From the NCBI GenBank assembly GCA_964016885.1, contig CAXHJY010000632.1, positions 1 through 19,366 on the forward strand: a DNA stretch of 19,366 bases. Direction: 5' to 3'. Under the pieces are notes generated by a model. The model worked only from the letters and a program-made list of their open reading frames with translations, did not search any database and was not told where the DNA came from. The first letter of the stretch is position 1; every line of letters starts with the position of its first letter. Both the position numbers and the translations under genes were made by a program. The stretch comes from Eledone cirrhosa. Lineage: Eukaryota. Below, in pieces: positions 238 through 19,366 of the stretch.

Positions 238-665
238 TCTTCTGGCTTTATAATTAACAAATGTTTGCCAATAGAGAGAGAGTCGGTTTCTAACATAGAC
301 ACTAGACTCTCTCATTGGAATTTACATCAACTAGGTAGATATGTATGCATGTGTGTGCAGGTATGGATGTTATTGTATATGTGGATGTGTATTTTTTGAG
401 TTGTTTGTGTGCATGTGCAAATGTTTTGTATCTATACAAGTGTATATGTTATTAGAAGCAGAATTTTTGGAATGTTTTACATATTTTTATTGTTCCATTA
501 ATGGATTGTACTTGTATTTTCCTAACTATGTATGTATAAATATATGTATGTATGTATGTATGTAAATAACAGACTATATACACTCGTACCCCACCCCTCA
601 ATATTGTTTTCAGTTCTTTACATTTTTTACTCTATTTTTCTATATCAAGTTTTTTACACATTCTA

Positions 666-701
666 CCTTCTGATGAATGTCTTGTGGCCGAAATGTTATG
701 G
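666..701 (+). ncRNA. Degenerate minimal hammerhead ribozyme motif (PLE-type relic)
   Basis: CCTT-CTGATGA(670-676)-at-GTC ttgt GGC-c-GAAA(690-693)-tg-TT-ATGG. The core boxes are exact. Stem II is 3 bp, and stem I CCTT/ATGG has one mismatch. GAAATGTT is one CpG transition away from the palindromic GAAACGTT. Confidence 0.45.
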
Positions 702-802
702 CTCTTTTCCTACTATATCAAGCGTTAAGCTGATATATTTCTTCATTGTACTGAGACGTATGCTTTATTATTGGTGTTTATATTGTTTATATTTGTAAGA
801 AT

Positions 803-2246: not shown

Positions 2247-2982
<736 letters not shown>

Positions 2983-3198
2983 ATGTGAGAAAAACCACAG
3001 ACCCTCCATCTCAACTCACCTTTTGAAAAGCAGAAGAACTGCGAAACCGGTAAAGGAACCAAATAAATATATATATTTAAAAAAAAAAATAAGACTCCAG
3101 TTGCATTTTCGATTTCATCTCTTTTTCTTTATACTTTCACTCGTGTAGGACACCTCGGTTATTTTTCATTTTGTATAAAAAACCTCACTTTCTAATAT
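2983..3198 (+). mobile_element. ~215-bp non-autonomous hammerhead-bearing element, copy A (PLE pLTR/retrozyme-like)
   Basis: Near-identical to the reverse complement of 17239-17452, with essentially the same ends (atgtgagaaaaacc ... actttctaatat). Flanked by (TA)n on both sides. Contains a hammerhead motif followed by AATAAA. Confidence 0.8.
3019..3056 (+). ncRNA. Minimal type I hammerhead ribozyme (U3-A8 core variant)
   Basis: Stem I CCTT(3019-22)/AAGG(3053-56); core TTGAAAA (3023-29); stem II GCAG-aagaa-CTGC; GAAA (3043-46); palindromic ACCGGT stem/loop III; predicted cleavage after GUA (3052). Confidence 0.7.
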
Positions 3199-3200
3199 GT

Positions 3201-3252
<52 letters not shown>

Positions 3253-3254
3253 GT

Positions 3255-3302
<48 letters not shown>

Positions 3303-3306
3303 ACAC

Positions 3307-3350
<44 letters not shown>

Positions 3351-3390
3351 GTATACATGTATATATATATGTATATATATATATATATGT

Positions 3391-3466
<76 letters not shown>

Positions 3467-3793
3467 ATATATATATATATATGTATACATGTATATGTAT
3501 ACATATATATGTATATACATATATATATGTATGTATACATTTATATACATATATGTATGTATACATTTATATATATTTATATATATATATATATATACAG
3601 ATATATGTATACATGTATATATATATATATATACATGTATATATATATATATATTCATATATATATATTCATATATATATATATATATTCATATTCATAT
3701 ATATTCTCTTTTACCTGTTTCAGCCATTTTATCTCCAGCCTGTATAGGTTGGCCACTGGTGTAAGAGGGAGTTTGTTGCTGCTGCCCTTAGGT

Positions 3794-5590: not shown

Positions 5591-6280
5591 TCTCTCCCCC
5601 TCTCTCTCTCTTGTAATACACGCTCTATATTTCCATTTTGCCATGATCCCTTCTTAATCAATTATACATATATCAGGAGGGCTTTATTTCGTAGGTAAAC
5701 ATGTATTTCTTTGACATTTAATGAAACCCGAACTGGTTATTTGTTGCAGGTCTCTATATCTCATGATGTTTCGTTGATTACAAATATTGGCATAACGTCG
5801 CTGACTTATTACCAAAGGGATATACTCAAATCTGTGTCTACTTACTGTCTTTTATTTATCAACTCCCTAATGATAAATTCGAAAGATGACCAAGTTTGGC
5901 ATTTTATTTCAGGACCCAAATGGAGTTAAATAATCTATTTACAAGACGTTTATTTATATTGCTTCATCATTCCCTTCTTTCCTTGTCTGAATTAATACAT
6001 CAAGGATCTGGTATCGTCTTAAATTATTACATTACTGCATCATTCACTCATCTCACTGTCTATTTTGATACGTCAATGATGTGATATTGGTTTCAACGAC
6101 GTGTGATTAGTTCTTCTATCAAATTATTAAATTATTTATGTAAATTTTCACGAAAGAATTCAAAGAATTTTGTCGAGAAATATACACCATTACTGTCAAT
6201 CAAAATTCCAGTCCGGTATAACAATTATTTTCCTCACAGAAGAACCACATCATGAGACTATGACTGGCAATCGTCTCAGC

Positions 6281-6569
6281 GACCATATCTGTATCAGTGA
6301 GCTGCTCAACATTACCAACCTTAGACCAATTACATTAATTGTCAAGTCAAGAGTACTCAAACTATACGGTCATATAAAAGATCAACTCGTAGTGTGAGCA
6401 GATTATGGCTGGTAAGAGAAGCAGAGGACGGCAGCCAGAACGATGGCTTGACAATATCAATTTACGGACTGGACTTGATCTTTGCTCTTTGAATTCTGTT
6501 GCTGGTGATCGAACTTTGTGGAGAGAGATATCACATGTTGATGCGCAGTCTGCAAGTCGCGGAGTTTAG
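6281..6569 (+). mobile_element. 5'-truncated RTE-clade LINE, C-terminal ORF relic (frameshifted)
   Basis: DHICISELLNITNLRPITLIVKSRVLKLYGHIK, then a frameshift, then MAGKRSRGRQPERWLDNINLRTGLDLCSLNSVAGDRTLWREISHV...* (TAG 6567-69). This matches the RTE C-terminal pattern R.L..xGH / GKRxRGR...RWxDxI / AxDRxxWR. Confidence 0.85.
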
Positions 6570-6869: not shown

Positions 6870-7054
6870 CGCTTCGTGGCATAGAGTTACGACCCTTTAC
6901 GTTCTGAGCTCAAATCCTGTCGAGGTTAGCTTTAACTTTCATCTTTACGGACAAAATAAAGTACCAGTAACGCACGGGGTCGATTTAGTCATCGACTTTC
7001 CCCCTACCCCTTCAAATTATTGGCCTTGTGCTTAAAGTAGAAACAATTATTATT
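6870..7054 (+). mobile_element. tRNA-derived SINE, 5'-truncated, with (ATT)n tail
   Basis: Box B-like gctcaaatcc, core ctttcatc...aaaataaagtaccagt...ggggtcgat, and 3' end ggccttgtgc..agtagaaacaattattatt. Aligns with the copies at 7245, 7467 and 17018. Confidence 0.85.
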
Positions 7055-7055
7055 G

Positions 7056-7235
7056 TTTTTGTTTCTTTTTTTTTTGCTCGGCTTCTAACGCTGGAGATGT
7101 ATTACAGTGTTAGGTGTTTACCACCAGTGAACTAAGGTAACTCCTTATTTTTCGAGTCCCCTCCAGAGTATTCGAGCTGTTCCAAGCAATGATGTTTTTT
7201 ATAAGTGTTCCATCCGTATTGCAATCCATATTTGT
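7056..7235 (-). mobile_element. R4/Dong-like non-LTR retrotransposon 3' end (ORF C-terminus, 3'UTR, A-rich tail)
   Basis: The minus strand reads QIWIAIRMEHL*KTSLLGTARILWRGLEK* (final stop 7147-7145), matching the R4/Dong C-terminal pattern LQKxxLLGTARILRRVL. A-rich tail at 7056-7075. Flanked by the direct repeat TTATTATTG (7047-7055, 7236-7244). Confidence 0.75.
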
Positions 7236-7244
7236 TTATTATTG

Positions 7245-7466
7245 GATTGGAAGTATCGGTAGAGCGTCGGACGCGATACTTTCAAGCATAGAGTTACGAA
7301 CCTTTATGATCTGCGTTCAAATCCCACCGAGGTTAACTTTGCCTTTCATCCATTCGGGGTCGATAAAATAAAGCACCAGTAACGTACTGGGGTCGATTTA
7401 ATCGACTTTCCCTTCCCCCAAATGACTGGCCTTGTGCCTATATGAGAAACCATTATTATTATTATT
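7245..7466 (+). mobile_element. Near full-length tRNA-derived SINE (octopus-type; central domain resembles the Meta/MESC SINE domain)
   Basis: Box A-like tggaagtatcgg, box B gttcaaatccc, core gcctttcatccattcggggtcgataaaataaagcaccagt, and an (ATT)5 tail. The family label is from recall, not a search. Confidence 0.9.
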
Positions 7467-7861
7467 GTAGAATCGGTAGAGCGTCGGACACCATGGTGTG
7501 CAGCATAGTTACAGCCCTTTATGATCTGAGTTCAAATCCAACCGAGGTTAATTTTGCCTGTCATCCTTACGGAGTCGATAAAATAAAGTACCAGTAATGT
7601 TCTGGGGAGTAATTGCTGGCCTTGTGCCAAACGTAGAAACAATTAATATTAAAGTTAACTTTGCCTTTCATCCTTACGGGATCGATAAAATAAAGTACCA
7701 GTAATGTTCTGGGGAATAATTGCTATCCTTGTGCCAAACGTAAAACAATTAATATTAAAGTTAACTTTGCCTTTCATCCTTACGGGATCGATAACAAAGT
7801 ACCAGTAATGTTCTGGGGAGTAATTGCTAGCCTTGTGCCAAACGTAGAAACAATTAATATT
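7467..7861 (+). mobile_element. SINE with its 3' half tandemly triplicated (~106-bp units: 7544-7650, 7651-7756, 7757-7861)
   Basis: Head gtagaatcggtagagcgtcggac...gttcaaatcc, then three units gttaactttgcctttcatccttacgg...gtaccagtaatgttctgggga...aaacaattaatatt. Confidence 0.9.
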
Positions 7862-10284: not shown

Positions 10285-10636
10285 GCATATATATATACTT
10301 GTATGCATATATATGTATATATACTTGTACGCATAGGAGGAGACTGAGGTTAGCTGGACATGCTCACCGACATTCAGAGTTGAAATTGCATTCAGTGCTC
10401 CTGTGAGAGCCCCTACATGGACACACTGAAAGAGGAAGACCAAGGTTAAAGTATGTTGATGCCCTAAGGATAGACACTGGTCAGTTGGAGACACAGGATG
10501 ATGGCAGCGATGATGAGGGATAGAGACCGCTGGAGAAAACTCGTCCATGGATCTCGCGAATTTTACCTGCCCTAGATAGATATTTGTACGCATATATGTA
10601 TAAATATTTATATATATACTTGTACGTATATATATA

Positions 10637-13110: not shown

Positions 13111-13320
13111 AGGGTTGCACACTTTTTTCGGGGGTGTGTGCGACCCCCCCAAGGCGCCTCCTCTCTATTGAGGATTTTGTTAAAAATTTTATTTTTGTTA
13201 TATCTTATTTTATTTTTATATTTTGTTATTGCCTCCTCCTTATTGAGGACGCCTTTTTGTGTAAACTCCCCCCTTTGTACTTGTCCCACTTTTGATGCCC
13301 TAGTGGCAAATAAAAGAAAT
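13111..13320 (+). mobile_element. Structured 210-bp island, probable 3'UTR end of a non-LTR retrotransposon
   Basis: Complex T-rich island ending AATAAA (13309-14) + agaaat + (AT)n, with sharp boundaries inside the array. Contains hairpins and a 19-bp direct repeat. The family is not identifiable. Confidence 0.4.
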
Positions 13321-16965: not shown

Positions 16966-17136
16966 TTATCGACCCCCTAAGGATGAAAGCAAAGTTAACC
17001 TCGGCGCGATTTCAACTTTATGATGTGAGTTCAAATCCCGCCGAGGTTAACTTTGCCTTTCATCCTTACGGGGTCGATAAAAGGAAGTACCAGTAATGCA
17101 CTGAGTAATTGCTGGCCTTGTGCCAACAGTAGAAAC

Positions 17137-17140
<4 letters not shown>
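16966..17140 (+). mobile_element. 5'-truncated SINE with an inverted 5' duplication (arms 16966-17017 and 17028-17080)
   Basis: ttatcgaccccctaaggatgaaagcaaagttaacctcggcgcgatttcaact is the near-perfect reverse complement of agttcaaatcccgccgaggttaactttgcctttcatccttacggggtcgataa. The plus copy continues to the normal SINE end agtagaaacaatt. Confidence 0.85.
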
Positions 17141-17178
<38 letters not shown>

Positions 17179-17238
17179 TTTAATATAGAAATGACCTCTA
17201 CAGGACTGGAACTGTTTCAATTTATATTCAATATATAT

Positions 17239-17454
17239 ATATTAGAAAGTGAAGTTTTTTTTACAAAATGAAAAATAACCGAGGTGTCCTACACGAGTGA
17301 AAGTATAAAGAAAAAAAGATGAAATCGAAAATGCAACTGGAGTCTTATTTAAAAAAAAATATATATATTTATTTGGTTCCTTTACTGGTTTCGCAGTTCT
17401 TCTGCTTTTCAAAAGTAGAGTTGAGATGGAGGGTCTGTGGTTTTTCTCACATCT
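17239..17454 (-). mobile_element. ~215-bp hammerhead-bearing element, copy B
   Basis: Reverse complement of 2983-3198 with a few substitutions. Confidence 0.8.
17379..17416 (-). ncRNA. Minimal hammerhead motif, copy B (slightly mutated)
   Basis: Minus strand aCTT-TTGAAAA-GCAG aagaa CTGC-GAAA-CcaG-TA-AAGg. Loop III palindrome is lost (CCAG instead of CCGG) and stem I is 3 bp. Confidence 0.6.
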
Positions 17455-17457
17455 GTG

Positions 17458-17575
17458 AGATGGGAGAAAAGCCGCAGAAGAACTGCGAAACCGGTAAAGG
17501 AACCAAATAAATATATATATATTTTTTTAAATAAGACTCCAGTTGCATTTTCGTTTTCATCTTTTTTTATTTATA
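17458..17575 (+). mobile_element. Copy C of the same element, head-to-head with copy B, with a 33-bp internal deletion and 3' truncation
   Basis: agatgggagaaaagccgcag|aagaactgcgaaaccggtaaaggaacc... lacks the segment equivalent to 3001-3033. Separated from copy B by a 3-nt spacer (gtg, 17455-57). Confidence 0.8.
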
Positions 17576-17624
17576 TATATATATATACGATATTAAATAA
17601 ATGGAAACTATATTTATAAAACCA

Positions 17625-17699
17625 TATTTATTTCATTATATATATTTCAGGGATATCATATTAACAATATGTTATGCCTTCCTCAGACAAAATACAATA
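17625..17699 (-). ncRNA. Type I hammerhead ribozyme motif (left arm of the palindrome)
   Basis: Mirror copy of 17843-17917. Here the base of stem II is AGG/CCT, fully Watson-Crick. Predicted cleavage after 17637 on the minus strand. Confidence 0.65.
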
Positions 17700-17842
17700 T
17701 AGACAGTTTTATAGATAAATAGATTTGACATACCGTTCAACATCGACTTGTATTTGAAAAAGTTGATTTGCCAAATCAACTTTTTCAAATACAAGTCGAT
17801 GTTGAACGGTATGTCAAATCTATTTATCTATAAAACTGTCTA

Positions 17843-17917
17843 TATTGTATTTTGTCTGAGGAAGGCATAACATATTGTTAATATGATATCTCTGAAATAT
17901 ATATAATGAAATAAATA
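17843..17917 (+). ncRNA. Type I hammerhead ribozyme motif (right arm of the palindrome)
   Basis: Stem I TATTgTATTTTGT/ATGAAATA-AATA; CTGAGGA (17856-62); long stem II AGGcATAaCATATT-gtt-AATATGaTATcTCT; GAAA (17894-97); palindromic ATATATAT stem/loop III; predicted cleavage after AUA (17905); overlapping AATAAA. Confidence 0.65.
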
Positions 17918-18069
17918 TGGTTTTATAAATATAGTTTCCATTTATTTAATATCGTAAATATACTCCAAATACTTGTTGAGTGCTTTTATATCAGTTATAA
18001 ATATTTACTAGTTGTAACCCAACAATTTAAATATAACTTTCCATATATATATATATATATATATATTTT

Positions 18070-18196
18070 ATATAGAAATGGCTTCTACAGGACTAGAACT
18101 GTTTCATTCGAAGAGGAAATTATCAGGAAAGCCTTGATTTCTTGATGATTTCCTTCGAATGAAATATTTCTAGTCCTGTAGAAGCCATTTCTATAT
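18070..18196. repeat. ~127-bp imperfect fold-back (arms ~60 bp, ~7-nt loop)
   Basis: atatagaaatggcttctacaggactagaa...ttctagtcctgtagaagccatttctatat. The outer 29 bp pair perfectly, and the inner part has mismatches and a 2-nt indel. Confidence 0.92.
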
Positions 18197-18510
18197 TAAA
18201 TATTTATACTCTGCTATGTATTGAGTACATTACCCCTGATTGCAACTGTGATACACATACACACACACATGTATATATATATGCTTAGATACACATACAG
18301 ACAAAGAAACAGACACAACAGAGAAATAAAATTAAGTATACAATTGCGAAAATTCATATCATAGAAACAACGAATACGAGAAGGAAGGGATTTGATCGAT
18401 GTAGAAATTTTTAAATTCTTTAACTGATTTAGAGGCAACATTTTAGAATAATGCATCAGTTGTAGTTATATAGAATGGTATATAAACCTGCTGTGGAAGA
18501 TATAGATTGG

Positions 18511-19366
<856 letters not shown>

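Follow-up and report, generated by a model that had tools for sequence, protein, structure and literature searches.

The repeat of about 215 bp that recurs in the window (the whole stretch of 19,366 nt analysed here) is most probably, with a likelihood that we put at roughly 80%, the pLTR, or 3' end, of an endonuclease-positive Penelope-like element (PLE), present as a solo copy (A) and as an inverted insertion (B plus C). The sequence offers the repeat itself, a hammerhead of recognisable anatomy, a head-to-head layout with a palindrome at the junction, a tail on one side only and a deletion in one of the arms. As in a pLTR, the terminal unit is about 200 bp long (216 bp) and bears its hammerhead on the sense strand, B and C form an inverted head-to-head copy that has a palindrome where its arms meet and a tail on only one of them, and the 3' ends are joined to an AT-rich or (TA)n target. 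The link to PLEs had been put forward in an earlier, sequence-only reading and is supported by the type I hammerhead with a palindromic stem III and by the pLTR-like layout. This layout is the one published for PLEs, whose insertions are truncated at the 5' end, have an inverted copy there and carry a tail at one of their two ends. Seen in these terms, the repeat is an ordinary leftover PLE end, solo or 5'-truncated, and its hammerhead variant has already been described in other animals.

Exactly three related segments, at the positions given by the earlier reading, were recovered from the window by self-BLAST and nhmmer, the latter finding no copy beyond A, B and C. Copy A (2983-3198, plus strand, 216 bp, 32% GC) is a solo, pLTR-like PLE 3' terminus lying within a compound TA microsatellite. 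Copy B (17239-17453, minus strand) is the long arm of a head-to-head inverted pair and has its 3' end joined to (TA)n, and copy C (17458-17570, plus strand) is the short inverted arm, which has no hammerhead core and breaks off prematurely where an internal T/TA-rich site meets (TA)n. The alignment of A with B over about 215 bp contains 202 matching columns and 6 substitutions, plus an inverted T/A tract, and both ends are common to the two copies, bearing out the proposal that they share a 3' end. The inverted tract (about 3074-3091 in A) is the reverse complement of 17345-17360 in B, a micro-inversion between short inverted repeats. The 33 nt missing from C correspond to 2997-3029 of A and are bounded by CAGA microhomology; this deletion takes out the 5' arm of stem I and the entire U3-A9 strand. 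Copy C also stops about 66 nt before the 3' end, and the 3' extension, or tail, of about 66 nt (17239-17303, minus strand, with an approximate boundary) is found in A and B and is absent from arm C. The 5' ends of B and C meet in a palindrome of 16 bp at 17445-17460 (7-bp arms around a 2-nt centre), and the two copies constitute one head-to-head inverted insertion, so that the independent events number two, not three. Accordingly, the 5' end that had been described as shared by the three copies stands for A and B, which have the same start, whereas its independence does not, since B and C are one insertion and the first four bases of A, being also the unit of the surrounding array, leave its 5' boundary uncertain by that much. 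A transcript across B and C folds into a single long hairpin (-155 kcal/mol, z -24), which would be predicted to sequester the hammerhead motif. A reading frame on the minus strand (17245-17454, 70 codons) is open across the whole of copy B; a protein search returned no homologue for it (0 hits among 13 candidates), and its openness is likely due to chance.

At the level of the target, the surroundings have to be read with caution, because 54% of the window, which is non-coding, masks as purine-pyrimidine-alternating microsatellite and a TA context is by itself weak evidence. The distance to a pure (TA)4 run is 0 nt for B, 2 nt for C and 10 nt for A, a proximity of 10 nt or less being found for 8% of the non-microsatellite positions versus 54% of all positions. 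The claim that all copies abut (TA)n therefore stands for the 3' ends of B and C and not for their 5' ends, which abut one another, nor strictly for A, whose ends are separated by 10 nt from pure (TA)4 within the compound array. An identical 11-mer flanks both ends of A; as a target-site duplication this 11-bp direct repeat was rejected, because it is simply the unit of the array, of which 2250-3700 contains 19 occurrences. The AATAAA that had been noted after the motif is indeed present in A, at 3062, although it is uninformative given the 40 occurrences in the window on both strands. A single-copy island of 206 bp (13112-13317), ending in AATAAA, lies within pure TA microsatellite; scans detected no hammerhead in it, and it is possibly another TA-targeting element. 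The window also contains a SINE-like family of at least 5 related pieces (6879-7861 and 16966-17137) with an internal inverted repeat and, at 7547-7861, a 107-bp unit repeated three times in tandem; the family may resemble octopus SINEs and, together with the microsatellite load, hints at an octopus genome.

A short, AT-rich unit with fixed ends in a TA context might equally suggest a MITE or a fragment of a Helitron, the alternatives that the sequence-only reading had itself named, and a CTAA near the 3' end does resemble the CTRR end of the latter. Helitrons are characterised by a 5' TC, a 3' CTRR and a subterminal hairpin. The ends of the unit fail on both accounts: there is no terminal inverted repeat, the best word being 6 nt long and out of register, a 5' TC is lacking, and the final 29 nt of the unit stay unpaired when folded and thus provide no subterminal hairpin. 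An origin of this kind is extremely improbable, and the unit is better accounted for as the terminal repeat of a PLE.

The only intact hammerhead of the A/B/C family is that of copy A (3019-3056, plus strand, nt 37-74 of the 216-bp unit, in sense orientation), a minimal type I motif with a U3-A8 core and a predicted cut after A3052. Its stem I comprises 4 bp (3019-3022/3053-3056) and is followed by the core U3-U4-G5-A6-A7-A8-A9 at 3023-3029, a stem II of 4 bp with G10.1-C11.1 (3030-3033/3039-3042), GAAA at 3043-3046 and the palindromic stem III ACCGGT at 3046-3051. The earlier interpretation of the UUGAAAA core as a compensatory U3-A8 change is supported, and so are the hammerhead parse of A, which is complete, and the comparison of the ACCGGT palindrome with that of PLE hammerheads; the U3-A8 variant is known in PLEs. 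In B (17379-17416, minus strand) the motif is decayed: the U3-A8 core is kept and stem II still has 4 bp, one pair of stem I is lost, leaving 3 contiguous pairs, and the palindrome is broken to ACCAGT. Copy C retains stem II and the palindrome only, and the presence of the palindrome there indicates that its loss is B's own. The core boxes, with a 3-8 pair (C-G or U-A), GAAA and UH, are thus present in A and B and absent from C, and a palindromic stem III permitting a dimer is found in A and C and is broken in B. Of a stem I that could have had 5 bp, A lacks one pair and B another, so the stem of the family may be longer than in either copy. The extra nucleotide after A9 that is typical of minimal PLE hammerheads is absent from A; it is also missing in some published PLE motifs, such as Chlamys-2_cBra, which has the same stem III palindrome (PMC8557442). 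Covariation of the stems was found in none of 12 pairs, in a comparison of 3 copies, and both stem changes in B break pairs. Judged from these structures, B and C would be unable to form the ribozyme, while A could. The number of three copies given by the sequence-only reading consequently holds for the related segments and not for the hammerheads, C being without a core and B decayed.

The question arises of how often such a pattern would appear by chance. With positions 3 and 8 left free in the descriptor, a scan of the window gave 4 matches, namely A, B and both arms of an unrelated inverted pair, F3. When the non-microsatellite sequence was shuffled, this descriptor with stems of at least 3 bp was matched 0.38 times per window, a value that fell to 0.12 with a Watson-Crick 3-8 pair and to 0.013 (300 shuffles) when both stem I and stem II also had to reach 4 bp. 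With a palindromic stem III required as well, 1 match was obtained in 2000 shuffled windows (0.0005), and only A passes in the real window; shuffles of A alone matched this strictest descriptor 2 times in 20000. The strict descriptors were fixed after the motif had been seen, their features coming from the published consensus. Under a loose descriptor with stem mismatches allowed the motif is not rare (0.36 per window, 25 shuffles): the loose scan gave 15 matches at a score of at least 6 versus 10.6 expected, and on score alone only the two F3 motifs stand out, those of a further inverted pair, F2, not being individually significant. A possible decayed minimal hammerhead of canonical appearance (CUGAUGA ... 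GAAA) was noticed by eye at 664-705 (plus strand) and was missed by the scans. Local Rfam scans with a limit of E<=10 returned 10 and 38 matches, none of them to a hammerhead family, a test that must be considered insensitive given that the canonical-core motifs of F3 were also missed; a MALAT1-domain match (E 5.8) was rejected as chance. The whole-window Rfam search yielded 582 matches, and the 150 listed were all of miRNA families, below gathering scores, at microsatellites and hairpins.

Two further families in the immediate vicinity of B and C share their architecture. F3 (17590-18042) is an unrelated, near-perfect head-to-head pair with about 180 bp per arm, its centre near 17770 and a tail of about 85 nt on the plus arm only. 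It is the strongest hammerhead match in the window, with a canonical C3-G8 type I motif in both arms (nucleotide 3 at 17686 on the minus and at 17856 on the plus strand) and a (TA)-palindrome as stem III, and it is probably the youngest PLE insertion of the window. F2 (18067-18250), also unrelated and head-to-head, has decayed hammerheads and a tail on its plus arm only, and a 5'-truncated fragment of it, containing the 3' half of its hammerhead, lies on the minus strand at 17178-17220, just beyond the 3' end of B. Each F2 arm has one core change, C3 with A8 in one and U3 with G8 in the other; these are the two single-step intermediates between C3-G8 and U3-A8, and they probably reflect neutral decay. 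In all three hammerhead-bearing inverted pairs of 17239-18250 the hammerheads face away from the centre and the tail (about 50-85 nt) is confined to one arm. The outer ends of the three meet TA or TA/CA repeats, the tailed end of F2 lying 22 nt from a pure TA run, and in F2 and F3 the 5' breakpoint is common to both arms. A fourth fold-back, with about 130 bp per arm and centred on (TA)n, extends over about 18510-18795, its left arm reaching about 18290, and descriptor scans found no hammerhead in it; fold-backs can thus arise here without a hammerhead. This last structure favours the notion that an unrelated AT-rich element bears the motif by chance and that B/C is a repair fold-back at (TA)n cruciforms, as do the lack of an Rfam match, the lack of covariation and the poor folding of the motif in its context. 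The centre of B/C is not (TA)n, however, its orientation and tail match those of two other hammerhead families, and the strict descriptor is rarely satisfied by shuffled windows or by shuffles of A, all of which makes a chance origin very unlikely and argues for the PLE terminal repeat.

A refinement of the PLE explanation, which does not exclude it, is that the unit is a dedicated non-autonomous family, SINE-like and consisting of the pLTR only, whose short RNA with a fixed 5' end would be self-transcribed and mobilised in trans by the PLE protein. The identical bases at which A and B start and end, 14 kb apart and in different flanks, are in agreement with this idea, as is the report that pLTRs alone suffice in cis for mobilisation (PMC3846280) and the proposal of pLTR-derived non-autonomous elements in vertebrates (bioRxiv 10.64898/2026.07.22.740005). 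The independent events are nevertheless only two, the coincidence of B and C adds nothing, as the arms of F2 and F3 also share their 5' breakpoint, and the 5' boundary of A is blurred by microhomology with the array. In addition, A might derive locally from an insertion of the B type, a longer element might have a hairpin hot spot at the shared breakpoint, and ordinary PLEs are known to have solo pLTRs of 193-218 bp with palindromes at the 5' end (PMC3846280). The non-autonomous PLE-derived family with fixed boundaries that had been suggested is upheld as regards the common ends of A and B and is weakened by the two insertions on which it is founded; we regard it as a tentative possibility. 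Its fullest form, a high-copy, fixed-length, pLTR-only retroelement with its own 215-nt RNA that hijacks the PLE protein into (TA)n and has a family-wide U3-A8 hammerhead, appears rather doubtful. If it were true, such an element would be a dispersed, non-tandem parasite of PLEs, a PLE-dependent SINE distinct from the retrozymes, and junctions of the B/C type would testify to cDNA folding back where the RNA has a defined 5' end, providing a natural dataset on how PLEs make inverted repeats.

With respect to activity, folding predicts that stems I and II form in a 50-nt monomer of A (0.65-0.91) and that stem III does not. Two such 50-nt motifs co-fold as a double hammerhead at -21.1 kcal/mol versus an optimum of -22.5 and -15.0 for two monomers, that is within 1.4 kcal/mol of the optimum and 6 kcal/mol below two monomers, whereas the active fold of a B dimer (-5.4 versus an optimum of -18.2) falls short by 12.8 kcal/mol. 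Within the complete 216 nt the pairing probability of stem I is only 0.03 and the dimeric active fold is up to about 20 kcal/mol behind, an overestimate, as the flanks were folded separately. A competing hairpin over the core (3020-3030) was dismissed at a probability of 0.00-0.01. On these models, any activity of A should be weak and require a partner, which fits the published behaviour of a schistosome motif (no cleavage as a monomer and low cleavage as a dimer) and of the anole PLE hammerhead, the cleavage of which is protein-assisted. Hammerhead cleavage is reported to be dispensable for PLE insertion in vitro.

These observations are compatible with a mechanism in which a PLE protein with RT and GIY-YIG activities would have made a nick in (TA)n DNA and primed reverse transcription close to the RNA's 3' end, giving rise to arm B and its tail. 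On reaching the 5' end, the new strand would have folded back or switched template and then been recopied; during recopying it may have slipped once and jumped 33 nt across a 4-nt microhomology to produce arm C, which would then have been joined to (TA)n at an internal TA-rich site. Alternatively, inverted pairs might result from priming on both strands by a dimeric protein. The PLE protein is reported to nick both strands of AT-rich DNA, and two internal RNA start sites, which make the tail, have been described, while the palindromes have been read as signs of self-priming, placed on an antisense template (Arkhipova 2013, PMC3846280). The sequence of the window does not separate the fold-back, antisense self-priming and two-strand priming models. 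The hammerhead of the family, in which the 3-8 pair would be kept as U-A, is expected to cut weakly after A3052, only when dimerised by way of the palindrome and probably with help from protein.

No remnant of an RT or endonuclease adjoins any of the copies, and no frame combining RT and GIY-YIG was found in the window. Pfam searches with 9 short-frame peptides returned nothing relevant (1 weak, irrelevant match), and neither Pfam nor the protein search supports a resemblance of the first codons to the C-terminus of the endonuclease. Decayed C-terminal ends of LINE RTs lie at about 6130-6550 and 10320-10580 (plus strand), the second judged by eye; the frame 6411-6551 corresponds to residues 606-652 in a protein of 660 aa that contains an RVT_1 domain. 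A protein search with a LINE-like frame gave 0 hits among 25 candidates. Beyond the window, an exact 26-nt scan of prokaryotic genomes gave 0 matches, and blastn of A against phages gave none. No tRNA gene was found. Diagnostic 13-mers had 0 matches in the available part of the Craig 2021 supplement (PMC8557442), where line breaks could hide matches, and the sequence has no record in the portions available of the Craig 2021 and Bonar 2026 supplements. A Naiad 3' end with an overlooked U3-A8 motif was set aside, inspection by eye having matched it to none of the three octopus Naiad consensus ends and the 13-mers having given 0 matches in the material available. A literature search on U3-A8 hammerheads led only to Cervera and de la Pena (2014, PMC4209133), and this family is absent from the titles and abstracts of the papers listed on octopus Penelope hammerheads.

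The finding of a U3-A8 PLE family in what is apparently another animal lineage would constitute an independent covariation supporting selection on PLE hammerheads. As U3-A8 motifs escape both Rfam and searches restricted to CUGANGA, statements that some PLE groups have no hammerhead may deserve a recheck. Besides, three unrelated families within about 1 kb, all with the same outward-facing inverted layout and one-sided tail, offer a test bed for the fold-back and two-start-site models.

Regarding the known systems, the unit resembles the metazoan non-LTR retrozymes (PMC7229834; Li et al. 2026) in being short, non-coding, low in GC, equipped with a type I hammerhead and related to PLEs, and differs from them in that it is not tandem, has a minimal instead of a canonical hammerhead and adopts an inverted layout. 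Its size and composition are within their ranges (150-400 nt, GC below 45%) and monomeric derivatives of retrozymes exist, so it might be taken for a monomer of a tandem, circular-RNA-forming element processed by its own hammerhead. Retrozymes are nonetheless defined by tandem units, and those that cleave well carry canonical hammerheads, minimal ones being assigned to PLEs. Here there are no head-to-tail copies in the window, the ends of the unit do not coincide with the cut site, and the longest word common to both 40-nt ends is 7 nt and not terminal. The retrozyme-like character that had been proposed is therefore not supported, for want of tandem units, terminal redundancy and a canonical motif, and an origin of this sort is very unlikely next to a PLE end. 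Among PLEs, the Hydra clade (Craig 2021, PMC8557442) has small type I hammerheads, commonly with 4-bp stems, inverted 5'-truncated copies and (TA)n targets, into which nearly all of its members insert. In 23 of the 25 families listed with a motif the published row starts 87-210 nt from the 3' end, as computed here from those rows, and the hammerhead of the present unit, at about 200 nt, is within that range. In contrast, all 25 listed families are C3-G8, and none of them matches the sequence, Hydra-1_Obim included.

A close parallel in architecture is provided by the pLTRs of Pen2, Pen2a and Pen3a in the rotifer Adineta vaga (Arkhipova 2013, PMC3846280), which measure 193-218 bp, have 5' palindromes and a shorter, inverted head-to-head copy, and also include solo copies, deletions at microhomologies and, as an option, a tail on one of the arms; each of these features has its counterpart here. 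Unlike in A. vaga, no ORF follows the unit and there is no informative target-site duplication; the rotifer pLTRs include the first codons, whereas this unit has no usable start codon, and its tails are longer than the 30-40 nt published for PLEs. The hammerhead itself is closest in kind to those described for PLEs by Cervera and de la Pena (2014, PMC4209133), who reported U3-A8 minimal motifs, about 1,300 of them in S. mansoni, mostly solo or as opposite-strand pairs 100-700 bp apart. The S. mansoni Cercyon motifs are likewise of type I, with U3-A8, a short stem I, G10.1-C11.1 and a palindromic stem III region, occur mostly solo or in opposite-strand pairs, and include a PLE-associated example with the same UUGAAAA core start. 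They differ in stem II, which has 4 bp here versus 6 bp in their PLE-linked U3-A8 example and 7-8 bp in the main families, in that the present motif has no extra nucleotide after A9 and a palindrome of 6 nt, and in their unrelated sequence. Natural U3-A8 cores had already been interpreted as covariation and found active in vitro (Perreault 2011, PMC3088659), and their publication in PLE hammerheads makes the core change no surprise. PLEs are reported to account for 6.83% of the O. vulgaris assembly and to comprise 190 families there, a load from which remnants such as this one are to be expected if the host is an octopus.
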